From contig CAUYUJ010000272.1 in assembly GCA_963575745.1 (NCBI GenBank), positions 1 to 64,000 on the forward strand: a stretch of 64,000 bases of DNA, written 5' to 3'. Source of the DNA: Prorocentrum cordatum. Taxonomy: Eukaryota. Positions within the stretch are counted from its first letter, which is position 1, and each line of letters begins with the position of its first letter. Below the pieces are notes generated by a model. That model ran no database searches, was not told the DNA's origin, and saw nothing but the letters and a program-made list of their open reading frames with translations. The position numbers were made by a program, and so were the translations under genes. Below, one piece after another: positions 29,974 to 43,099 of the stretch.

Positions 29974-31308
29974 CTCCGGAGCCCAGGCCCGGGGGTGTCT
30001 GGGCGGCCGGCCCTGCCCGCCGCGCCCGGCACGCCTCGCTCTGCAGCCGCGCCCCTCGAGAGCAGCCGGCGCGTGCGGGTTCGCGCCTTGCAGGCACTGC
30101 CCGCCCGGCTGCTGCGGCACCGCGGCGGGTGCGCCGCGGGGGGGGCGTTCGGCCACGCGCAGAGGGGAGGCCTTCGTTGGCTTTTGGCGGTTCTCGGCGG
30201 TGCTCGTGGGTTTCCGGCGGTTTTCCAGCCTCGGGAAGCTCTCCGGCACCTGCGCCTCGCCAAGAGCGTTCTGGGGGTGCCCAGATCGTCCCAAACGGCC
30301 GCCTGAGGCCCGAGTTGTGGCCCGAAAGCCTACGTCACGCGCAGAGGGGGGAATGGGGAGGGGGGAAGGCGTCTTCGAAGCACCCCTGCTTCTTAGCAGG
30401 CGTGGGCCTCGTCTACAGATGTAGGGGCGGCGCTTTCCAAGAAGCAGCCTCCTTAATGTAATAGTAGCCTTCCCCCCTCCCCTTGTTCGCGCCGGCAAGT
30501 GATACAGCTCGGCCACACGCGAGAGCGACCCTCTAGGCCTCCCAGGTGGGGTCGAAGTAGACGGGGGTCGGAGGATCGCGCTGCATCGGCGATGCGTCTC
30601 GATGTGGAGCCCGACATTCTTCACGCCGAGGTCGCCGATGCATCGCCGACGCCGCCGATGCATCGCCGATCTATCGCTGATGCGGTGTAATTTTTCCGAC
30701 ATCCACTCGGACCCCATCTAGGAGGCTTTTAGACATCTCTATACCCTTCGCCAGAGCGACCCTTCGTTGCGTGATATTCGACCCTGAGCCAAACCTCAGA
30801 AACGGTTGTGGACGTCGCCGCGGCGAGCGCGGCGGCCACAAATCGGGGCGAGGTGTTCGTCAAGTAGCGACATGCCCCTTACCAGCCCCCCCCCGCTCTG
30901 CGACGTAGACTTTGCTCATGAATAACACTAGCGACAGAGAGTTGTCAATGTATGTCCAACATGGGCAGTCACCTTTCTTTGTTAGGCGTCGACTACCACG
31001 CAACCGAGAGGCGCCTTCGAGGCGGCTGTAGACTGACGGACGATATCGTCTGTTCCTGGAGGCTCTCCCTCGAGATGCGTTCCAGCAGCTGCGCCTCGCC
31101 GAGAGTGCTCCGGGGGGGGGGAGGGGCCGAATGATCCCGAACAGCCTCGCCGGTTCCTGGAGGTTCTCCCGCCTGGGGATGCATTCCAGCAGCTGCGCCT
31201 CGCCGAGAGCGCTCCAGGGGGGGTGGCGTCAGTGGTCCCGCGGGTAGCCGAAAAAACTATGGAAAAAAACATCATGTGGACAAAAACACAAACTGTGTGT
31301 GTGTGCGT

Positions 31309-31375
<67 letters not shown>

Positions 31376-31622: not shown

Positions 31623-31678
<56 letters not shown>

Positions 31679-31750
31679 TAAATATATACATGCTACGCAT
31701 GTATGTATGTATGCATGCATGTAAGTATGTATGCATGCATGCATGTATGA

Positions 31751-31782
<32 letters not shown>

Positions 31783-31881
31783 GAACCTTCCAAGGAAACC
31801 TATGCGGAGTCCACCTGAGCGTGCGCGACGCCGTTGATGGATAACGGTTGAGTTTCATCCATCTGCCGTAGCTGTGTTGGC
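31783..31881 (+). repeat. Split direct repeat A1 (99 bp, 5' terminus of the element)
   Basis: GAACCTTCCAAGGAAACC...GCTGTGTTGGC reads identical to 39033-39131 (offset 7250). Confidence 0.95.
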
Positions 31882-32121
31882 TCGAGACAGGCAGCGGAGT
31901 CACCGGGCGGTGCCGCCCGTCTGTGGCCGCTGCCGAGCCACTCTGTCTACTGAAAGTTCGCCGCGCCGAGCGCGGCCGCGTGCAGGCCACGCTCGGACGA
32001 CTGATTCTGATCAGCCTCGCTGGCAGACTTTGCGGGCTGAGGGGAGCGAAGACCTGGCTGGGAGACGAGGATCCCGGGCGCGGGTCGCCCCTCTCCCGCG
32101 CCGCTGCTGGCGAGGAGCCCG

Positions 32122-33564
32122 ATGGAGCGGGCAGCCCCGGGTGCCGCCGGGTGGCCCTTCCCGAGAGGGGCCTGGCTCGACGCGGCGCTGAACGGCGACC
32201 TGGTGCCGGGGCTGCCGCTGTGGGCTGGTGCACGGGTCCTGGCGCGCGTCAAGGACGACGACGGGGCGCCGCAGGGCGTCGAGATGCTCGAAGTGGAGGT
32301 CGCCTACCAAGCGGACGCCTTCGGCCGTTTCTTCAAGGGGCGGCACGTGGGCGCCAGCGACCCGTACTTCTCATGGTATGCAGCCTCCTCCGGGCAGCAG
32401 GGCGCGCGCCCCCTGGCCACGGTCTTCCACCTCTGCAAGTGCAGCGCCGCCGAGTGCGGGGCGGTCGCCCCAGTGGGCGCAGTAGTCGAGCACTTGGACG
32501 TGTGGCAGGTGGTGGACCCCCGCGATGTGGCCCGCGAGCAGGCGAAGCTCATCTGCCCGGCCGCGGACCCTGGAGCGCCTGTGCTGGCCGACGCGCCCTC
32601 GGCCGAGCCGATGCCTGGAGAGCTCGGCGGATGGCCGCTCGGGGACGGGGCCAACGAGGACGAGGAGGAGCCTCGCGGGCCACCGCGCAAGCGAGCCCGC
32701 GAGGTGGAGGGCACCCAGACCCCTGGCGGACCAGGAGATACGAGCCCGCTCGACCAGGAGCTTGCTGGGCTCGAGGAGACCGCCGAGGACCCCGAGCTCG
32801 AGGCGCGGCTGGCGCGGCTCGGGGGCAAGGCAGCTCGTGGTGGGCCGAGGCAGGGCACGCCCAAGAATGCCGCGCGCCCAGCAGGGGCCGTGGGCGAGCG
32901 CCTGGCGCAGGTGGTAGCTGGCCGAGCCGCCGCTGCTGCCCCTGCGCGCGCCAGCGCCTCGGGATCGAAGAGCAGGCTGGCGTCAGCGTTGACCGCTGCG
33001 CTCCTGGGGCGCGACGACGACGACGCGGAGGACGGCGCGGAGAGCGACACGGAGCGCCTCGGGGGCCGCGATCGCTACCAGGGCGTGAACATCAAGCGCG
33101 ACTTGTTCCGCAGGATCGCTCGGCAGCGGCCTGGTGCTCTCCTCGAGAATGGGCTCGGCCACCTGCGCAGCCAGTTCACCCAGCAGCTGTCCGCGGGCGA
33201 AGCCGACCCTCTGGCCCCATGCGTCACGCAGTTCCTGAACACGGTGTTCTTCGTTGCTCACCCGCCGCGCACGCTGGGGACAGACGAGGTGCGGGTCCTC
33301 CGCACGCTGGGGCTGGCGCTCGACGGCATCCTGCGCGGAGAGGTCGTCGAGACTGCGGATCTGCTCATGCAGGAGTTCAAGGCGCGGACGATGGCCATCC
33401 GCGACGGGAACTGGCGGTCAGCACGGTGGCTCACGCTGGTCGCACAGGAACAGCTTCCATCAGGCGCCTCTCTGGACGAGGAGAACGCCGCCGAGAAGGT
33501 CGAGGCCCGGGAGCTGAAGGTCGCCGAACTCCGCCAGCGGCTTGCAGACCGCAGGCCGGGCTAG
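32122..33564 (+). CDS. ORF1, putative Gag-like protein of the YR retrotransposon (480 aa)
   Basis: ATG-initiated, non-repetitive and GC3-rich, in the first-ORF position of the element. It has an N-terminal H-x-C-x6-C-x11-H cluster, an acidic/Pro linker and a helical-looking C-terminal block ([30 protein letters not shown]). The Gag call is positional. Confidence 0.8.
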
Positions 33565-34041
33565 GGGTCTGGCCGGGAGCCGTCTCCGTTGCAGGGGGGG
33601 ACGGCACCTGCAGGCCATGGGCGCGCGGAGGCGCGCCCCCCGCCCCCTGCTACCGGGACGCCAGTCTCGGGATCGGCCGAGGCGATGAGGATCCTTGCCG
33701 GACGCGTTCCTGGCGACGGTCCCGCAGCTCCCCCCGCCGAGAAGAAGCCGCCAGCGGCGCGGAGGACCAGCCGCAGTCCCACGCGGTCAGTCCAGCTCCT
33801 GAGCGACTCGGAGGGGGACCTCGACGCAGCAGCCGCCGCCCGCGTGCCACCAGCGGAGGCGGCGGCGAGCCGGAGCTTCTCGCAGCACAAGGCGGCCCAC
33901 CCGAGGCGCGAGGGCGAGACCCAGGCAGCGTGGAAGGCGCGCATCGGGAGGCCGCTGGCTGCCAAGAGCCGCGGCAAAGGCAAGACGGGGAAGAGCCGCG
34001 GCACGGGCACTGCTCGCAGGACGGCCTGGGTTCGAGCGTGA
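33565..34041 (+). CDS. In-frame continuation of ORF1 beyond its TAG (158 codons, Pro/Ala-rich then basic KSRGKGKTGK tail); possible read-through extension
   Basis: Same frame as ORF1, with no stop between TAG 33562-33564 and TGA 34039-34041. It ends just before the likely pol start. Confidence 0.45.
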   Translation, partial: GSGREPSPLQGGTAPAGHGRAEARPPPPATGTPVSGSAEAMRILAGRVPGDGPAAPPAEKKPPAARRTSRSPTRSVQLLSDSEGDLDAAAAARVPPAEAAASRSFSQHKAAHPRREGETQAAWKARIGRPLAAKSRGKGKTGKSRGTGTARRTAWVRA

Positions 34042-34145
34042 GGGCCGACACGGCTAAGGCCGCGGCCCACAGCACGCCCCCGCCTGCCCTCCGCCCGCCT
34101 GAGCGGCAGCTTCGCGGCAGTTCGCAGGCTCGGCGGTGGCGCCAG

Positions 34146-37100
34146 ATGCTAGCCGAGGTGGGCACGGGCGTCAGCTCCAAGTTCAGGCTGGCCCTCGCAG
34201 TCCACGAGGCGGTGCACGGCTCGCCAGGGGCGATCGGGCGGTACGTTCGTAAGATGTGCACTTCGCCAGACCCCACGGCCAGCTTCGCGCGGCTGCGCGA
34301 GGTGTTGCCGTTACCACTGCCCGACGCCCCACTCTTCGAGAGGTACCGCGCCGCCTGGTACCTGCACCAGCAGCTGCCGGAGACCTGCGAGGTGGACGCC
34401 GCCACGGCGCAGGGGTGGGCCCAGCTCGTGGTCTTCAGCCTGAACTACCAGTACACGGGGCACATGCGCAGTCCCACCGTCGCCGCGAGGCGGCCCACGG
34501 CTAGCCAGGTTAGTGCGCTCGGCATTGTGCAGGAGGCCTGTGAGTATTTCGTTCAGGATGCCGCCACAGCCTTCGAGCTCCCGGACTGGGACCGGGTCAT
34601 CTCGTCGAGGACCGTCTCCTACGGGGGCGAGGAGACGGCCCGCGCCTTGCCGCTCTCGCTCGCGGGCATCATGCCAGGCCTCCCCGCGCGCGGCGTTGCC
34701 GCCTCGGTCAAGGCGGTCGACATCGCGGACGCTCAGGTGGGCGCCTGGCTTGCCGACCCCACGCTGGCTTTGCTCCCACGAGATGAGTGGCCTGCAGAGG
34801 TCCCGCGGGCAGCGATCCAGGTCACGTCCAAGCAGGAGTGGTACCGCATCGGGACCAAGCTCGTCGAGCTGGGGCTGGCGGCGCCGATCGCCGACGACCG
34901 CATCTTCAAGGTCGGGAACCGCAAGGTGCTTGCGGGGGCGTTCGGGGTCGCCAAGGGAGGCACGCCGTCACCTGGGCAGGCGTGCGTCCAGCGGTTAATC
35001 ATCAACATGGTCCCGGCCAACAGCTACCAGCGCATCATGAGGGATGACATCGGGACCCTTAGCGCGTCGCCCTCGTGGGTCGCCATCCCGCTCCCAGAGG
35101 GCCACATGCTGCTCTGGTCCTCGGATGACCAAGCCTCCGCTTTCTACTGCTACGAGCTGCCCGAGGCCTGGCAGCCATACATGACCCTCGCGGAGGCGAT
35201 CCCGAACGAGCTCATCGGTGTGCCGGGTCCTGGGAAGACTCACCTCGCGCTGCGCGTCATCCCGATGGGCTGGATCAACGCGGTCACGGTGTTTCAGCAC
35301 TGCCACAGGCGCCTCGGGTTCGGCTCTCGCCCCCTCGCTGCGGGGTTTCCCGCAGAGCTCGAGTGGCGCAAGGACCGGCCGCTTCCGTTCAAGTCGAAGG
35401 AGCTCGAGCAGCAGTGGATCCAGTACTACATCGACGACTGGGACCATGGCGAGGTGGTGCCCAACGCGATGGTCGCGGAGCTCCTCGGCACGATGAGCTG
35501 CGCGCAGGAGGAGCAGAGGGCCGCCTACGGCCGCTCGGGGATCAGCGTCGCCCCCGGCAAGGCCAAGCACCGCGCGCTGGTCCTGGAGCGGATGGGCGCG
35601 GGTCTTGACGGGGCCGTCGGCCGGGTCGGAGTCACGACCGAGAAGCTGCACCAGCTGCTGGCGTTCATCCTGTGGGGCATGGGCAGGCAGGGCCTCTCGT
35701 CACAGGGCATGCTCATGATCCTAGGCAGGTGCGCCAGGGCAGCGGAGTTCAGGAGGCCTTTCATGGGATTCCTCAACAGCGTGTGGGCTGCTGGACGCTG
35801 GACGCGTCCGCAGACTGGTCCCCTTGGCATGTGCGACGAGCTCTTGGGCTTCGCGATGGCGCTGCCGCTGGCCTACACTGACCTGCGCGCGAAGATCGAC
35901 ACTTGTGTCATAGCGACCGATGCCAGCGAGCGCGCCGGGGGCATCTGCCACACGGCCGGGCTCTCGGCGCAGGGCGTTGCGTGCGCGAGAGGGGGGGCTT
36001 CGGCTGTGACGTTGCGGCCTGGTGCAGTTGCGGCCCCTGTGCGGGGTGTGCGGTGGCGTCCTCGCATAGTTCTCATCGAGCTCTTCGCTGGCGCCGCGGG
36101 GGCCGCGGTGGCGGCCTCCAGACTCCCGATCGACGTGATGGCCCATGTCAGCTGCGAGGTCGAGCCCGCCGCCCGGCGACTGGTGCGTCGCCGCTGGGCG
36201 GGCGTGATCGAGCTTGGCAACATCGAGGCCGTCGACACGGCGCGGTTTACTGAGATGCTGAAGGGCTACGCGCGGGACGCCGACTGGGTCGTCCTGACCG
36301 CGGGGAGCCCGTGCCAAGACCTGGCGAGCATCAATGTCGTGGGGACCGGCCTGGAGGGGTCGAGGTCGAGGCTCTTCTTCCGGGTCCCCGAGCTGATCCA
36401 GGCAGCAGAGGCTGCCTTTCCCAAGCGCACCATGTGGTTCGTCGAGAACGTGTTCAGCATGACCTTAGAGTCGAGGGCGGAGTTCACCAGGGCGCTTGGC
36501 GTCACACCCGTGTTCCTCGATGCCAGGTGTCTCACTCACGTCAGGCGGCCCCGCCTGTACTGGTGCTCGTGGCCCGTTACGGCGTTCTTGGCGTCCGACG
36601 CCACCGTCGAGACCAAGGGTGTGGGTGAAGCCACGTACTTCAAGGTCTCGCTTGCGGTGGAGAGGCTCCCACTGAGTGCCTCGCTCCTGGAGGGCTGGTC
36701 GACGCTGGACCCTGAGGCAGACCTCCCTTGTTTCACGAGGCCGATCCCGCGGAGTCACCCGCCGTTTCGGCCCGTGGGCCTCGACCGCGCCTCGGTGAGG
36801 GCTGCAGAGCGCTGGGCTGCCGACAGCTACCGTTACCAGGTCAACAACTACGAGGACGGCAGCCTCATCTGGGATGCAAGGCGTGAGCGGGGCCGGCTGC
36901 CCGTGCCTGAGGAGCGTGCTGCCCTGATGGGGTTCGACCGTCTCTATTTCCAGGCCGCTGTAAAAGATAGTGCACCTGCCGCCGAGCGTGACAGCGTCAT
37001 TGAGTCTCTGATCGGGAATACGTTCTGCGTCCAGGCTGTCATGTATCTTCTCGGCTCGTGGCTCGCTCAGGTGGGGGCGCTAGCGGCCGCCATCCCGGGC

Positions 37101-37826
37101 AGCAGCTGCCTCGCTGTGGGCACGTGCGAGGCGAACTGGAACGTGGTCCCCGACTTCCAGCAGCCGGGACATCGCGACCCGCGGTTGGAACGCAGCCTGA
37201 TCGTGGAGTTCCTGAGGGTCGCGGACCGCGGGGGCACGGACGTCCGGCTTGACACCGGGGCACCCTACCGAGCCCGCGCGTGGCCGCGGGCAGCTCTCCG
37301 TACGCACCTCTGGGCCTGGCGGATCGCCAAAGGGTTTCGCTGGCAGCGGCCCGGGCACATCTCGGCGCTGGAGCTGGAGGCTGCAGTGGCTGGAGCGCGC
37401 TGGAGGTGCCGAGCGGTTGAGAACCACCGCTGCCGCTACCTGCACATACTGGATGCCCAAGCGATCGCGGCAGTCAGCACCAAGGGCAGATCGAGCGCGA
37501 GGGCTTTGCAGCCCGCGCTCCGCCGTCTCAACGCCCTCCTCCTCGCGACGGCAGGGTACCCGCTGTACGGCTACTGCGACACCGACGACATGCCCGCCGA
37601 CACGCCGTCCCGCTGGAGCTTCGGCCGCCGCTGCCTCGCTCCCAGTGCGGCCGCCGGCAAGGGCCAGGAGGGCCGCCCCCAGCAAGCGTGCAGCACAAGC
37701 AGCGGCAAAGGTGAGCCGGGTCACAGCTCAGGCGATGGCGCGACGAGCTGCAGCGAGATCCCAACCGCTGAGGGAGGCGATGGTCACGCCACTCACCCTG
37801 CAGCGGTACCGTGCGGCAGTCGATGA
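34146..37826 (+). CDS. Pol: reverse transcriptase + RNase H interrupted by a DNMT3-like C5-cytosine methyltransferase (~1226 aa from ATG 34146; frame open from 31923)
   Basis: RT motifs: AFGVAK, RLIINM, SDDQASAFY, IPMGW and YIDD (35427-35438). RNase H motifs: TDAS (35916-35927), HISALELE (37356-), ILDAQ (~37452) and PADTPSR (37593-37613). MTase motifs: I ELFAG (36078-36092), IV GSPCQ (36303-36317), VI ENV (36444-36452), VIII RRPRLYW (36543-36563), IX RLPVPEERAALMGF and X IGNTF (37011-37025). The start codon is uncertain. Confidence 0.93.
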   Translation: MLAEVGTGVSSKFRLALAVHEAVHGSPGAIGRYVRKMCTSPDPTASFARLREVLPLPLPDAPLFERYRAAWYLHQQLPETCEVDAATAQGWAQLVVFSLNYQYTGHMRSPTVAARRPTASQVSALGIVQEACEYFVQDAATAFELPDWDRVISSRTVSYGGEETARALPLSLAGIMPGLPARGVAASVKAVDIADAQVGAWLADPTLALLPRDEWPAEVPRAAIQVTSKQEWYRIGTKLVELGLAAPIADDRIFKVGNRKVLAGAFGVAKGGTPSPGQACVQRLIINMVPANSYQRIMRDDIGTLSASPSWVAIPLPEGHMLLWSSDDQASAFYCYELPEAWQPYMTLAEAIPNELIGVPGPGKTHLALRVIPMGWINAVTVFQHCHRRLGFGSRPLAAGFPAELEWRKDRPLPFKSKELEQQWIQYYIDDWDHGEVVPNAMVAELLGTMSCAQEEQRAAYGRSGISVAPGKAKHRALVLERMGAGLDGAVGRVGVTTEKLHQLLAFILWGMGRQGLSSQGMLMILGRCARAAEFRRPFMGFLNSVWAAGRWTRPQTGPLGMCDELLGFAMALPLAYTDLRAKIDTCVIATDASERAGGICHTAGLSAQGVACARGGASAVTLRPGAVAAPVRGVRWRPRIVLIELFAGAAGAAVAASRLPIDVMAHVSCEVEPAARRLVRRRWAGVIELGNIEAVDTARFTEMLKGYARDADWVVLTAGSPCQDLASINVVGTGLEGSRSRLFFRVPELIQAAEAAFPKRTMWFVENVFSMTLESRAEFTRALGVTPVFLDARCLTHVRRPRLYWCSWPVTAFLASDATVETKGVGEATYFKVSLAVERLPLSASLLEGWSTLDPEADLPCFTRPIPRSHPPFRPVGLDRASVRAAERWAADSYRYQVNNYEDGSLIWDARRERGRLPVPEERAALMGFDRLYFQAAVKDSAPAAERDSVIESLIGNTFCVQAVMYLLGSWLAQVGALAAAIPGSSCLAVGTCEANWNVVPDFQQPGHRDPRLERSLIVEFLRVADRGGTDVRLDTGAPYRARAWPRAALRTHLWAWRIAKGFRWQRPGHISALELEAAVAGARWRCRAVENHRCRYLHILDAQAIAAVSTKGRSSARALQPALRRLNALLLATAGYPLYGYCDTDDMPADTPSRWSFGRRCLAPSAAAGKGQEGRPQQACSTSSGKGEPGHSSGDGATSCSEIPTAEGGDGHATHPAAVPCGSR

Positions 37827-38649
37827 AGTCGTTGATTTCTGGATCCAGGAGCACCGGCAGCCGCAGACGCCCGCTCAGGTCGACGCTGGCGTGGCCGCCT
37901 TCATTGAGAGCCGCTGGCTGAGCGGAGGATCTTTGTTCGAAGTTAATAATGCTATTGCTGGCATCACGCACGCTTTCCCGCCCGTGCGAGGGCACCTGCG
38001 GGACAGCTGGCGCTTGGCCAAGACGTGGCAACGACTGGAGCCAGCTGGGCGGGCGCTGCCGATTGGTCCGCTGATCGCGGCAGCATTCGCTGGTGCATTT
38101 GCAGCCGTAGGCCAGCTCGGTGCTGCGGCGGTGCTGGCTGCGGGCTACGATGCTTTCCTCCGGACGGGTGAGATGACCTCGCTCGTGTGGTCCGATGTAC
38201 AGCTGTACCCACTCCGACGAATGGCCGTGCTGCAGCTGCGCAACGCCAAGAGCCAGCATCAGACTGGTGCCCGAGAGTTCGTGCTCGTGCGGAGTGGTGT
38301 AGCGGTCGCCCTCCTTGCTAGAGCAAAGGCTCAGGCGCACGGACAGGACTTGTGCCTCGGAATGGAGCCAAACAGTTTCATGAACACTTTCAGCCGAGTG
38401 CGTGAGCTGCTGGAACTGCAGGATGCTAAGCTCACCCTCTACAGCTGGCGGAGGGGCGGCGCCTCCGCCGACTTCCGCAGCCATGGCTCCATGGAGCAGA
38501 CGCTGCTCCGAGGCAGATGGGCCTCGGCGCGCACGGCCCGCTTGTATGTCCAGGATGCCGTCGCCGAGGCCACTCAATTAAATCTCTCGCCCGCGCAGCG
38601 GAAGCGCTGCGGCCTGCTCGCGTCCCGCCTGCGAGCAGAAGCGAGATGA
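37453..38649 (+). CDS. Tyrosine recombinase (integrase) of the retrotransposon, overlapping the pol 3' end in another frame
   Basis: Catalytic motifs: FLRTGE (R at 38161), NAKS (K), YSWRRGG (38440-, HxxR position), RGRW (38509-38520) and ARLYV (Y at 38545). The first in-frame ATG is 37453, with alternatives at 37735 and 37780; the frame is open from about 37249. Confidence 0.92.
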   Translation: MPKRSRQSAPRADRARGLCSPRSAVSTPSSSRRQGTRCTATATPTTCPPTRRPAGASAAAASLPVRPPARARRAAPSKRAAQAAAKVSRVTAQAMARRAAARSQPLREAMVTPLTLQRYRAAVDEVVDFWIQEHRQPQTPAQVDAGVAAFIESRWLSGGSLFEVNNAIAGITHAFPPVRGHLRDSWRLAKTWQRLEPAGRALPIGPLIAAAFAGAFAAVGQLGAAAVLAAGYDAFLRTGEMTSLVWSDVQLYPLRRMAVLQLRNAKSQHQTGAREFVLVRSGVAVALLARAKAQAHGQDLCLGMEPNSFMNTFSRVRELLELQDAKLTLYSWRRGGASADFRSHGSMEQTLLRGRWASARTARLYVQDAVAEATQLNLSPAQRKRCGLLASRLRAEAR

Positions 38650-38782
38650 ACTTTTCTTGCTTTGTACTGCCTGTCTGTCTGTCCCGCCCATCCTCCACCT
38701 TTCTTCCCTCATTTCATTACAACGAGGTGGAGGGCATAAGTAAGAGCAAGAGGGAGCGGCTTTTGCCAGAGTAGGGACCGTG

Positions 38783-39026
38783 GAGAGAGCTAGGGGGTTC
38801 AGGGGTTGGTGACGTTTAACCTCCCGGCGGTGCAAGTGTGTCAGCGCGTCTGGGACGCAGCGCGGGTGCTTAAGCGCCACGGCTGTGCCAGGCGGGTTGG
38901 GAGGCCCTTGGATGCCGCTGAAGGGACGGGACCTCTCCCAACTCCTGGAATGACCCCTGAGTAGCCCCCAGAGGTCCTGGCCTGACAAGCTCCCTGGCGG
39001 AGTGCACAAAAACAGGTGAGAGAAGC
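38783..39026 (+). repeat. Split direct repeat B1 (244 bp)
   Basis: GAGAGAGCTAGGGGG...GGTGAGAGAAGC reads identical to 39210-39453 (offset 427). Minus-strand ORF-track translations over both copies are also identical. Confidence 0.95.
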
Positions 39027-39032
39027 ATATAT

Positions 39033-39131
39033 GAACCTTCCAAGGAAACCTATGCGGAGTCCACCTGAGCGTGCGCGACGCCGTTGATGGATAACGGTTG
39101 AGTTTCATCCATCTGCCGTAGCTGTGTTGGC
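39033..39131 (+). repeat. Split direct repeat A2
   Basis: Identical to A1 and joined to B1 through ATATAT (39027-39032). Confidence 0.95.
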
Positions 39132-39209
39132 CCACCCACAGACAGGGGGCAGCATTGCTACCGTCTCGCGCGTGGCCGTGCCTGCCTCCGCGCGAGTATT
39201 TGCCAGGAC

Positions 39210-39453
39210 GAGAGAGCTAGGGGGTTCAGGGGTTGGTGACGTTTAACCTCCCGGCGGTGCAAGTGTGTCAGCGCGTCTGGGACGCAGCGCGGGTGCTTAA
39301 GCGCCACGGCTGTGCCAGGCGGGTTGGGAGGCCCTTGGATGCCGCTGAAGGGACGGGACCTCTCCCAACTCCTGGAATGACCCCTGAGTAGCCCCCAGAG
39401 GTCCTGGCCTGACAAGCTCCCTGGCGGAGTGCACAAAAACAGGTGAGAGAAGC
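39210..39453 (+). repeat. Split direct repeat B2 (3' terminus of the element)
   Basis: Identical to B1 and followed directly by (AT)12 at 39454-39477. Confidence 0.95.
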
Positions 39454-39491
<38 letters not shown>

Positions 39492-40098
39492 ATGCGTGTA
39501 TGTACGTGTGTGGGGTATGGCAGTATGTGCAGGTGTATGTGCATGTGCATGTGCATGCATCTGCATGTGTATGACCATATGTATATGTATGTGTGTATGT
39601 AAATGTATATGAAGATGCACGTGTCTATGTGCATGCAATTGTATATGCATGTGTTTGTGTTTATATGTATATGTCTATGCATGTGTATATGTTTCGCAAC
39701 GGCATGTCGATGTGTTTACACGTGTGTGTATACATGTACGCATGTGTGGTTACATGTTTAGTTGTACGCATGTAGTTGTAATTGTATAAATATACAGTTA
39801 GACGTATATGTACGCGTTTATGTATATGTGTATGTATACGTGTTTGTATGCGTTTGTATATGTATGTGTGCGTGTCGATGTATCTGCATCTGACTATGCA
39901 TAGTTGCAGGTGTATGCGTGCGTACATGCGTATGTACATGTGTATGTAAACGTATCTGTATATGCATTTGTACATGTATATGTATATGCATGTGTATGTG
40001 CATATGTATATGTATATGTATATGTATAGGTATATGTAAATGTACATGTATATGTATATGTATATTTATATGTATATGAGCATGCATATGTATGTATA
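39454..40098. repeat. (AT)n/(TATG)n alternating purine-pyrimidine tract, right half of the retrotransposon target (left half 31625-31782)
   Basis: Directly visible; a similar (TATG)n/(TGCA)n tract lies at 42248-42850. Confidence 0.95.
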
Positions 40099-41746
40099 TC
40101 CCTCTTCACACATTTTTGCAAGCTGGGGGGCGGACCCCCCCCACACACCCTCTCCCCGCCCAAAACCGAGCCCCCTGGATCCGGGGCTTCGGGACCCCCG
40201 GACATCCTTGCCAGAGGTCCCCTGGCTCGTCAGGGACCTCCCAGGGCGCCTCGCCGGGTCTTGACCCCAAGCGATCAGAGCAGTGATCAGAGAGGCCGAA
40301 GAGAGACCCAAGACAGCACAAGAGCGCTCCAAGAAGGACCCAGATGGCCTCCAGAGGCCCCCAAGACGGCCGAGGAAGCTCTCAACTTGACTTCCAGAAC
40401 GCAAGAATCGCTTCATTCTCGCTGTTCGGGTCTCCGCAGCGTCCACAACAGCCAGAAAGGCTTACACTATCGCCCCAAGACGACCCAAAAAGCCCCCAAG
40501 AGAGCTTCTAGACGGCCTGGATGGCCCCAAGACTGCGCAAGGAAGCCCCACATGAGCCAATAGGAGGCCCAGCATGCCCCCCAGAAGGCGCCCAAGAGAA
40601 CCCCAAGAAGGCACGGGAGGCCCCAAAAAGGCCATGGGAGGCCACCAGGAGGGCCTACGCACCCCAAGACTGCCCAAGGAAGCTCCGAAAGAGCCAAAAA
40701 GAAGCCCAAGAGGCCCTCAGAAGGCGCACAAGAGAAGCCAAAGAAGGCACGGGGGCCCCCCAGAAAGGCCATGGGAGGCCACCAGGAGGGCCTACGTAGC
40801 CCCCGCAATGTTCCTAGAGGACCCAAGCTCCCTAACATGGCCCAAGATAAGATGCCCCCAGGACGGCTCGACAGGGCGCCAAGCCGGCCCGCCTGGGCTC
40901 CAACAAGACCCACACGGCGTTTTCCTTAAAACTGACCCGAATTTCGTGTTCGCAACCACATTTCCCGAACATTTTTGCGAACCCGGGGTTTGGTCCATTC
41001 TTTACGAGTTACTCACGTGCACGTGCCCCGTTGCGACCCGCTGCAACATGACATCCTCGGCTTGGCATTGCTTTGTATTTTGCAGCATCGCTTGACATTG
41101 CGTCGGTTTGCTTGGCATTCCCTCCCCTGCTCCTCTGGGCCCTCCTCCTCCACCTCCTCCCCCTCCTCATCTTTCTGCCGCTCCACCACTCGTCCTCTCC
41201 CACATCCGCTTCCTTCCCTCGCTCCACGACTCTCCCCACTCCTATCCTTCGCCCTCCACCCAGCGCCTTTCGGGGACCCGTGGAGGCCCTGGGAAGGGCC
41301 AGGGACCGCCCGAACTTTGGAAGACTTCTGCAAACCACCGCAGGGGAGGGGTCAAATCCCCACTGCCACTAGGGATGGCGCGAACGACCAACATATGCAA
41401 AGCCTCAAGGACCAAGGTGCATGGCACGAAGCGCCAATGCAGCCTTGTATTATATATATATATATATATATACATATATAGTTATATCTAGACATGTGTA
41501 TATGTGTATGTGTATGCATATGTAGATGTAAATCTATATGTACAGGTAAAAGGTATAGGTACATGTGTATGTATGATCCCGGGTGCCGGGCTGACGAGCC
41601 CCCCCCCTTCCCCCCTCGGGTGGGATGGGTTTCAGGGTTCCACAAGGCCCCCGCCCTCCCCCCCAAATGGGATGGGGGGGGAGGAGGAGGAAGACGACGA
41701 CGACGACGACGACGACGACGACAACGAAGACGACGAAGACGACGAA

Positions 41747-41781
<35 letters not shown>

Positions 41782-42698
41782 CAAAGAGCCGACCACGAAT
41801 GATTTCTCTGAGCGTGGAGACTCACGCGAACACTTCTAAATCTCGGGTTCGGCACTCTCATGCAATTACTTCGTGCATGCTCCAGCAAGCGTGCATGCCC
41901 CGAAGACGTGGTGGGGAGGAAGAAAGGGAACTCAAGGAATGAAGAAAGAACATTCACATAGCATAACACACTGGAGCGGCAGCACCGTAACACCAAGCGC
42001 GGGGCCTCCCCAGCGCGCCGAAGCACCACGCCGCACCCACGAAAACTGACCACAGCACCAACCCACACCCACACCAACCCACACCACACCCACAGGGGGG
42101 GGGAACCATCGTGGGGGAAGGAGGGGGCCCGATGGCATATCCATTGGTGGGGGGGCCAGGCCCTGGACCATGGATGCCTGTTTGTAGGTAGGTGGGTAGG
42201 TGGGTGGGGGGGTGGGTAGGTAGGTCGGTAGGTATTTAGGCAGGTCTGTATGTATGCATGTATGCTTGTATGTATGTTTGTTTGTATGTTTGTATGTATG
42301 CATGCATGCATGCATGCATGCATGTATGCACGTAGGTGTGTATACATGTATGTATGTATGTAAGTATGCATGCATGCATGCATGCATGCATGTATGTACG
42401 TATGCATGTATGTATGTATGTATGTATGTATATACGTATGTATACATGTATGTATGTATGTATGTATGTATGTATGCATGTATGCATGCATGCATGTAAA
42501 TATATGTATGTATGTATGCATGCATGTATGTATGTATGTATGTATGTATGTATGTATGTATGTATGTATGTATGTATGTATGTATGTATGTGTGTATGGG
42601 TGTATGTATGTATGTACGTATGTATGTATGTACGTATGTATGTATGTATGTATGTATGTATGCATGCATGCATGCATGCATGCATGTATGTATGTATG

Positions 42699-42731
<33 letters not shown>

Positions 42732-43099
42732 GTATGTATGTATGTATGTAAATGTATGTATGTATGTCAGTATGTCTGTATGTGTGTATGTGTATGTGTA
42801 TGTGTGTATGTGTATGCGTGTGCGTATGCTTATGTGTGTATGCTTCTATTCATGTATATCTACACAAAATGTTGCCAGCTCGCTTCGCTTCGCGTGTAAT
42901 CTGTGAGTCGCATTGCGCCAGAGGCTCGTCGCGACTGGTAGTCGCCAGCACCGCGTTGCGCTTCGGCCATGGTGTCATGGGGCACACAGGACTGATGGGA
43001 CCCATGTTCTCTTCCGAGTCAGAGGGCTCAAGGGCTCTCCGCCGCCACTGGGGTCCAAAATCTCGGAGCGCTAATGTGGAAGTGGGGTAACTCAGGCAG

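Follow-up and report, generated by a model that had tools for sequence, protein, structure and literature searches.

Classical DIRS1, PAT-like and Ngaro retrotransposons use a tyrosine recombinase (YR) in place of a DDE integrase, together with a reverse transcriptase (RT) and an RNase H of the retroviral/Ty3 type, and PAT and Ngaro carry split direct repeats. Where elements of the DIRS order possess a methyltransferase (MTase), it is a Dam-like N6-adenine domain after RNase H, according to the text of a 2018 paper (de Mendoza et al., PMC5890265). The same text describes another kind in Symbiodinium, SymbioDIRS-Dnmt3, with repeats arranged as A-coding-B-A-B, a Dnmt3 domain in the Pol open reading frame (ORF) together with RT and RNase H, and a separate YR ORF. 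Two S. kawagutii copies of SymbioDIRS-Dnmt3 methylated CG de novo in yeast (PMC5890265). Here, these systems are compared with the locus at positions 31783-39453 of a 64,000-nt stretch of contig CAUYUJ010000272.1 (the window, meaning the whole stretch analysed). In all likelihood, this locus is a complete, recently inserted DIRS-order retrotransposon of the published SymbioDIRS-Dnmt3 kind, residing in what is, by database labels, the genome of Prorocentrum cordatum. The original prediction, made from the sequence alone, had proposed an intact YR retrotransposon with its own C5-cytosine MTase, and this held up: RT and RNase H are recognized by fold, the MTase by Pfam family PF00145, the YR by its R-K-R-W-Y residues, and the repeats are perfect. 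The kind is already published, enzymatic activity included, as had been supposed from reports in Symbiodinium; what is new is the host lineage and a clade of its own.

The element has the layout A1-ORF1-Pol-YR-B1-A2-(78 nt)-B2, with these repeats and flanks:

31756-31782, no strand: left flank, a (TA)13T microsatellite adjoining the element, presumed half of the target tract
31777-31881, plus strand: repeat A1, 105 nt, equal to 39027-39131; its first 6 nt are TA-ambiguous and its unique part starts at 31783
38783-39032, plus strand: repeat B1, 250 nt, 100% identical to 39210-39459
39027-39131, plus strand: repeat A2; where B1 meets A2, GAGAAGC-ATATAT-GAACC repeats inside the element the presumed junction of the circle
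39132-39209, plus strand: unique spacer of 78 nt between A2 and B2
39210-39459, plus strand: repeat B2, whose unique part ends at 39453
39454-39477, no strand: right flank, (AT)12, presumed other half of the target tract

Both direct-repeat pairs found by a repeat search, A of 105 nt and B of 250 nt, are 100% identical, as self-BLAST agrees, so that 355 nt of repeat sequence stand without any mismatch between copies. The outer ends are TA-ambiguous at 31777-39459, and the predicted ends coincide exactly with the outermost bases that do not belong to the TA repeats, 31783 and 39453. The element thus sits within a (TA)n microsatellite, and the TA repeats on both sides would mask any target-site duplication. 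Self-BLAST found one copy in the window. The split repeats are shared with PAT and Ngaro, as are the YR and the type of RT and RNase H with all three classical groups, whereas the inverted terminal repeats and internal complementary region (ICR) of DIRS1 were not found at the element by the repeat search. Split repeats, Dnmt3 in Pol and a separate YR ORF are also what the element has in common with SymbioDIRS-Dnmt3. A single long plus-strand frame runs from 31872 to 37826, of which the Pol ORF is the true coding part; neither the Pol nor the YR ORF contains a frameshift, as predicted. The Pol and YR features are as follows:

34146-37826, plus strand: Pol ORF from its first ATG, 1226 amino acids (aa), uninterrupted, with 43 relatives at E<=1e-3
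34818-35921, plus strand: RT (Pol aa 225-592), from an AlphaFold2 model and fold search
35895-35987, plus strand: N-terminal piece of RNase H, strands 1-2 (Pol aa 589-606), with catalytic D592 in TDAS
36042-37085, plus strand: Dnmt3-type C5-cytosine MTase domain (Pol aa 633-980), nested in RNase H
37299-37625, plus strand: C-terminal piece of RNase H, strand 3 through helix E (Pol aa 1056-1157)
37735-38649, plus strand: YR ORF, in a frame open at 37216-38649 whose ATGs lie at 37453, 37735 and 37777; the last part of Pol overlaps it

The MTase is nearer to Dnmt3 than to other DNMT families, by both profile E-values and fold scores. The sole Pfam match among the three proteins of the window is PF00145, on Pol aa 643-772, with E 8e-8 and 32.5 bits where the cut-off is 22; this family is also matched by 27 of 31 Pol relatives. 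The closest solved sequences are DNMT3A and DNMT3B (1.4e-11 with the single sequence). A profile built from the 31 relatives reaches DNMT3A at 1.6e-28 (DNMT3A/B together 1e-26 to 1e-28), DRM2 at 3e-21, M.HhaI at 2e-8 and Dnmt2 at 1e-2 to 1e-6. At the level of fold, DNMT3B (6u8p_A) aligns over model residues 59-400 with Z 28.9, a root-mean-square deviation (rmsd) of 2.9 and 276 of 291 residues, ahead of M.MpeI (Z 24.0) and DNMT1 (Z 17.3). The catalytic motifs I, IV, VI, VIII, IX and X of C5-MTases are all intact: GSPCQDL, ENV and RRPRLYW align with motifs IV, VI and VIII of DNMT3A, and F647/G649, P722/C723, E767-N768-V769, R801/R803 and G957/N958 are each either invariant or conserved to at least 90% across the 31 relatives. 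Both the DNMT3-like character and the intact motifs (PC, ENV, RxR and the GN of motif X) had been foreseen. Mammalian DNMT3A and DNMT3B share these six motifs and are the best sequence and fold matches, yet identity at the fold level is only 20-21%, and the domain differs from them in the bacterial-type GN of motif X and in about 110 aa between motifs VIII and IX. A PWWP or ADD domain as in mammalian DNMT3 was not found by Pfam on the window's Pol. One contig of sequencing run X1 (contigs, kind of run not known) has the 418 nt at 36912-37331, the end of the DNMT and the linker, replaced by 34 other letters; this is a deletion derivative within the family.

The relation of the MTase to RNase H came out differently from the original prediction, which had placed RNase H upstream: fold, secondary structure and DNMT-less relatives all indicate that RNase H is split and the MTase nested inside it. 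Two AlphaFold models were built from alignments of 27 sequences. In that of Pol aa 575-1170 (mean predicted local distance difference test, pLDDT, 86.3; predicted TM-score, pTM, 0.84), RNase H1 chains match at Z 13.1-9 with 109-133 residues aligned, the best being 3u3g_D (Z 13.1, rmsd 2.5, 130 of 140 residues), whose match spans model residues 10..589, and the DNMT fold matches occupy residues 59..406. The order of secondary structures by DSSP is b1 b2 [DNMT] b3 aA b4 aB aD b5 aE. In this model, the Dnmt3 domain is inserted between RNase H strands 2 and 3, and the RNase H fold consists of Pol 589-606 plus 1056-1157. D592, A593 and S594 show little or no variation across 31 sequences, and E1076, D1103 and D1152, in the motifs LELEA, ILDAQ and PAD, are candidate catalytic residues of the second half. 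In the DNMT-less metagenome relatives L038 and L060, TDAS..GG and HI..LE stand in one frame only ~80-90 aa apart, which fits an insertion of Dnmt3 into RNase H. The Pol segments in question (L038:1632-3818 and L060:394-1743, with contiguous halves TDAS..GG and HI..LE..DS..KGRSS..MPMD) look like either the uninserted state or a precise loss. The contrast with classical DIRS-order elements is thus twofold, a C5 Dnmt3 instead of an N6-adenine domain and a position within RNase H instead of after it.

As to the rest of Pol, the expected PF00145 match was obtained, and the expected RT and RNase H families were not: no such family was matched by Pfam in the window's Pol, nor in the 31 Pol relatives at E<=0.01. 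A profile of the Pol family against PDB reached HIV RT at E 0.22-0.46 only. This was too weak, and RT was therefore checked by fold search. When the AlphaFold2 model of Pol aa 225-640 was compared with 48,161 chains, the first eight places all went to reverse transcriptases (Z 8.8-11.9), including those of MMLV (Z 11.9) and Ty3 (Z 10.9), with 261-291 residues aligned. The RT motifs are A LWSSDDQ (323-329), B VIPMGW (371-376) and C YIDD (428-431). On the N-terminal 224 aa of Pol, Pfam gave sub-threshold low-complexity matches only.

For the YR, a phage-integrase match of the window's own translation had been anticipated. No direct Pfam match above threshold was found for it, and the support comes through relatives. 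R143, K172, R240, W262 and Y271 are invariant in 10 sequences (the window and nine relatives from a word search), and PF00589 is matched weakly by 6 of 10 homologues. A YR profile collects 8706 representatives at E<=1e-3. When 60 of the 150 best were scanned, 31 matched PF00589 at E<=0.01 and 6 passed the gathering score. An alignment with Cre covers the R/K segment (E 0.12).

Upstream of Pol, the boundary with ORF1 carries what is probably a recoding site. The features concerned are:

32122-33564, plus strand: ORF1, 480 codons plus TAG; the frame is open at 32041-33564 and its first ATG is at 32122
33562-33564, plus strand: conserved in-frame UAG, probable recoding site (read-through and/or -1 shift)
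33571-33616, plus strand: RNA stem-loop starting 6 nt past the UAG; RNAalifold predicts 12 pairs, 8 with compensatory changes
33565-34041, plus strand: extension of ORF1 in frame 0, 158 codons ending at TGA, with a basic tail and a conserved motif PRReGEt..W.aR
33561-34145, plus strand: Pol frame upstream of its first ATG, -1 relative to ORF1, open from the UAG onward

ORF1 has no family match in Pfam and no usable match in the ESM Atlas, and its designation as gag-like rests on position only. It is seen in 34 tblastn high-scoring segment pairs across related loci, with conserved regions at about aa 33-131 and 315-470. In 13 of 13 loci whose ORF1 alignment spans its end, exactly one in-frame stop is found at the site (11 TAG, 2 TGA). 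Across 19 aligned sites, TAGGG does not vary and C-TAG-GGACTCGG hardly does, while identity of ORF1 between elements is only ~25-30%. The motif TAGGGRNTYKG occurs once each on the plus strand of 20 loci, against four matches on the minus strand. The possibility that TAG 33562 is a disabling nonsense mutation was rejected, because the stop is conserved among relatives. Together with a covarying stem-loop, the motif Y-UAG-GGACUCGG marks the ORF1/Pol boundary across the DIRS-Dnmt3 family (33562-33616 in the window; loci L001-L034). The paired cells of the stem-loop amount to 96.1%, compared with 75.6% in shuffles (0 of 500 reach the observed value) and 56-61% when it is slid. Its covariation score is 0.542 against 0.163 in shuffles, and 15 of 18 single-sequence folds at the site have z below -1.5 relative to mononucleotide shuffles. 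A scan of the site with Rfam gave no family match.

Both frames downstream of the UAG are kept open. The extension has the conserved motif PRR.GESR..WK.R and the basic tail, and in several relatives it lacks a Met of its own. Differences between copies in the extension fall on third codon positions (675) more than on the other two (447 and 363) in an alignment guided by that frame, which suggests coding selection on frame 0. In 12 of 12 loci, the extension is free of -1-frame stops, against 3.1-7.7 expected from codon shuffles (stop-free fraction <=0.024). Within ORF1 itself, stops in the -1 frame number 5-10 per 100 codons in 11 relatives and are absent from the high-G+C window, because its Pol frame is open from 31872. 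In 11 loci of middle G+C, the open Pol frame starts 7-33 codons ahead of the UAG, and in one more locus 116 codons ahead; from there, it runs for ~1400 codons without a stop. The predicted Pol of 34146-37826 is an open ORF of 1226 aa as described, but ATG 34146 is not conserved, being Leu in the closest relative L001, and is probably not where translation of Pol starts. A conserved stop, a short spacer, a conserved downstream RNA structure and coding sequence past the stop are therefore all present at the site. It is a candidate signal that would probably yield ORF1, an ORF1-extension product and an ORF1-Pol fusion by recoding. A sequence X XXY before the UAG is enriched and not universal, and simple P-site slippage as the sole mechanism everywhere was rejected, 9 of 19 sites being without it.

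In murine leukaemia virus, ribosomes read through a UAG at the gag-pol boundary; a G comes next, then a short spacer and a stable structure. The site in the window is alike in UAG plus G, short spacer and structure at the same boundary. It differs in that Pol of the virus is in frame, whereas the element has Pol in the -1 frame, and reading on in frame yields no more than an extension of 107-158 codons. For read-through in DIRS elements, a literature search gave no relevant result. Between the ORF1 extension and the conserved N-terminus of Pol, P-V-x-A-G motifs (PVVAG, PVLAG, PVSAG, PVRAG) occur 1-4 times per element in L004, L009, L010, L012, L013, L014, L018 and L027, and the copy in the window has a weak VSVAG only. 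They might be processing or docking sites.

The 43 proteins matching the window's Pol at E<=1e-3 are 17 labelled P. cordatum, 4 S. kawagutii gene models, 1 Polarella and 21 unnamed. Identity of the P. cordatum-labelled relatives is 53-96% in the subfamily of the window and 39-45% in a second one, and the label of the best match is P. cordatum, at up to 96%. The S. kawagutii models stand at 29-42%, or 37-42% where 91-98% of the query region is covered, and one of them, P0031, is colinear through the N-terminal region, RT, TDAS and DNMT (39% over 864 aa). These gene models may not be the copies analysed in the 2018 paper (PMC5890265). A FastTree phylogeny was made from 42 of 44 Pol sequences, leaving out P0037 and P0043 (coverage below 70%); it is midpoint-rooted, and no direction is claimed. 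The window, 16 P. cordatum-labelled Pols and 2 unnamed ones form one clade with support 1.0, and the S. kawagutii models fall into two others. Thus, the suggestion that family and host might be new was borne out, the hosts of SymbioDIRS-Dnmt3 being Symbiodiniaceae and the host label here belonging to the Prorocentrales. The G+C content of the window, ~0.58-0.60, also fits P. cordatum, for which 59.7% is given in the text of a published report (PMC10666404). A metagenome scan gave 68 related loci.

In run X1, 640 contigs map to the element, and 324 of these reach >=99% identity. Many variant copies are seen, plus loose ends in TA repeats at the A and B termini, which may come from this same copy. 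The identical repeats, the three open ORFs and the 324 of 640 contigs point to a young multi-copy family, and the 100% identity of the repeats with the many contigs at >=99% argues for recent movement. In L010, L016 and L052, contigs of ~7.2-7.3 kb, the ends repeat each other over 77-88 nt at 90-100% identity. This would be expected if an assembler collapsed A-B-A-B repeats, or if circles were sequenced.

From these results, a replication cycle may be proposed. Following the general model for DIRS elements and the internal B1/A2 junction, a terminally redundant RNA would be copied into a closed DNA circle with the junction ...GAGAAGC-(AT)3-GAACC.... The recombinase would then cross the (AT)3 core of this circle with a genomic (TA)n tract, in which case no target duplication would result. 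Ribosomes at the end of ORF1 would terminate, read through or slip by -1. A -1 slip would make the ORF1-Pol fusion, so that Pol would not be started at ATG 34146; recoding is inferred from the conserved UAG, the covarying stem-loop, the selected extension and the stop-free -1 frame taken together. The MTase would deposit CpG methylation de novo, as judged from the yeast assay of the S. kawagutii homologues. Because it is built into RNase H, it would most likely act on the element's own newly made cDNA, and the new copy would enter a heavily methylated genome already marked.

A number of observations weigh against this interpretation. At the UAG, the X XXY that simple P-site slippage needs is present in only 10 of 19 sites, the apparently intact copies L009 and L010 lack it, and it would be unusual for one site to serve both read-through and a shift. 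The (TA)n target is known from this one copy alone: self-BLAST of 25 long loci gave no clear A/B repeats, a repeat search of L027, L004 and L012 gave only diverged A/B candidates (with a TATG microsatellite left of L004), and no element boundary emerged from comparison of near-identical locus pairs. The RT model is moderately confident (pLDDT 70.6), and RT and YR of the window are themselves without a Pfam match. The same CAK08... accessions are P. cordatum in NCBI and UniRef but 'Polarella glacialis' in the naming column of nr. Finally, the ratio of observed to expected CpG is 0.96 in the element against 0.85-0.87 in the flanks, so that there is no deamination footprint of self-methylation; SymbioDIRS-Dnmt3 is likewise without CpG depletion, by the text of the 2018 paper (PMC5890265). 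The boundary could also be explained by splicing. The acceptor of dinoflagellate introns is AG|G, and the end of the motif, UAG|G, fits it. The conserved YUAG|GGACUCGG would then be a 3' splice site or spliced-leader acceptor, and a subgenomic mRNA, spliced or trans-spliced, would serve for translation of Pol and the extension, in the way that foamy viruses make their Pol. The 9 of 19 sites without a slippery X XXY are in favour of this view. So is the public P. cordatum gene model P0057, identical to the ORF1 region except that 33520-33741 (222 nt, GT..AG, containing the TAG) is skipped as an intron. The end of that intron is, however, not at the UAG, and it may be a gene-caller's device to dodge the stop. 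Contigs of run X1, not known to be RNA and hence uninformative on splicing, show no joint at 33520-33741 or at the UAG. Moreover, conservation lies downstream of the AG rather than upstream, where no pyrimidine tract is found, a covarying stem-loop 6 nt past a stop is the classic layout of a recoding stimulator, and the extension is in the ORF1 frame at at least 14 of 23 sites, several of them without their own Met. Splicing at this site is therefore regarded as quite unlikely.

Two further explanations concern the element as a whole. The copy may be intact and yet silent, with an MTase that has no present role for the element and either persists as a passenger or, when it leaks, acts chiefly on host DNA. 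According to the text of the 2018 paper, most DNMT retrotransposons are silent and DIRS elements expand alike with or without DNMT (PMC5890265), and the lack of CpG depletion in the element agrees with this view. It is opposed by catalytic motifs that are invariant in relatives down to 28% identity, by a ratio of nonsynonymous to synonymous substitution rates (Ka/Ks) reported there as below 0.2 for the DNMT domain (PMC5890265), and by the 355 nt of identical repeats and many contigs at >=99%, which point to recent movement. Silence of this kind is unlikely in our judgement. The sequence could instead be a host Dnmt3 gene or a domesticated Pol and no mobile element. Indeed, UniRef calls several relatives just 'DNA (cytosine-5-)-methyltransferase', and the available text on the nucleus proteome of P. 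cordatum reports DNMTs enriched in nuclei, citing the 2018 work and making no link to such elements (PMC10449503). The supplements of that paper, as far as available, lack DNMT terms, and the nuclear DNMTs cannot be tied to the family in the window. A host gene is hardly credible, given an MTase in one continuous frame with RT and RNase H, a locus bounded by perfect split repeats and a YR ORF, the absence of introns, multiple copies, and microsatellite surroundings in which no neighbouring gene was recognized (Pfam on 12 long flanking ORFs gave only sub-threshold low-complexity matches). The preferred reading thus remains a complete and recently inserted retrotransposon.

The text of the 2018 paper left open whether DNMT retrotransposons preceded or followed the dinoflagellate methylome and asked for other dinoflagellates (PMC5890265). 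No description of the DIRS-Dnmt3 family outside Symbiodiniaceae was found in the literature, subscription journals and figures apart, and a 2026 preprint, in its available text, still terms these elements Symbiodiniaceae ones. The main text of the P. cordatum genome paper mentions neither methyltransferase nor DIRS, retrotransposon or methylation. The nesting in RNase H, the UAG with its stem-loop and the (TA)n site are unmentioned in the text of PMC5890265, figures apart (Fig. 1e may show domain order). An intact multi-copy family with its own clade in a free-living bloom-former means that the kind is broader than coral symbionts, and relatives from Polarella and metagenomes together point to an old origin of DIRS-Dnmt3. 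With Dnmt3 nested in RNase H, there are concrete structural grounds for expecting nascent cDNA to be methylated, and the UAG with its stem-loop is a compact candidate recoding signal in a group whose control of translation is poorly known. It is possible, though we would stop short of calling it probable, that all of these belong to one picture. DIRS-Dnmt3 would then be no speciality of Symbiodiniaceae but an old lineage among the core dinoflagellates, represented in Prorocentrales, in Suessiales including Polarella, and in many contigs of marine metagenomes. Its Dnmt3 would have been put into the beta2-beta3 loop of RNase H, physically coupling cytosine methylation to cDNA synthesis, and an undescribed family-wide recoding module, Y-UAG-GGACUCGG with the covarying stem-loop, would give ORF1, an extended ORF1 by read-through and the ORF1-Pol fusion by a -1 shift.

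Outside the element, the window holds 100 N. Dense microsatellites surround the element at 31294-31374, 31626-31783, 39523-40093, 41693-41780 and 42247-42811. Their units are (TG)40, (AT)31, (ATGT)n, (TATGTA)27, (GAC)29 and (TGTA)140, and the flanks are compound TG/TA/TATG. Matches of Rfam miRNA families in these microsatellites, all sub-threshold, were rejected as composition artefacts. Further to the right, at 40525-40796, a 137-nt unit is duplicated in tandem (two copies, 85% identity), with Pro/Lys/Glu-rich frames on both strands.

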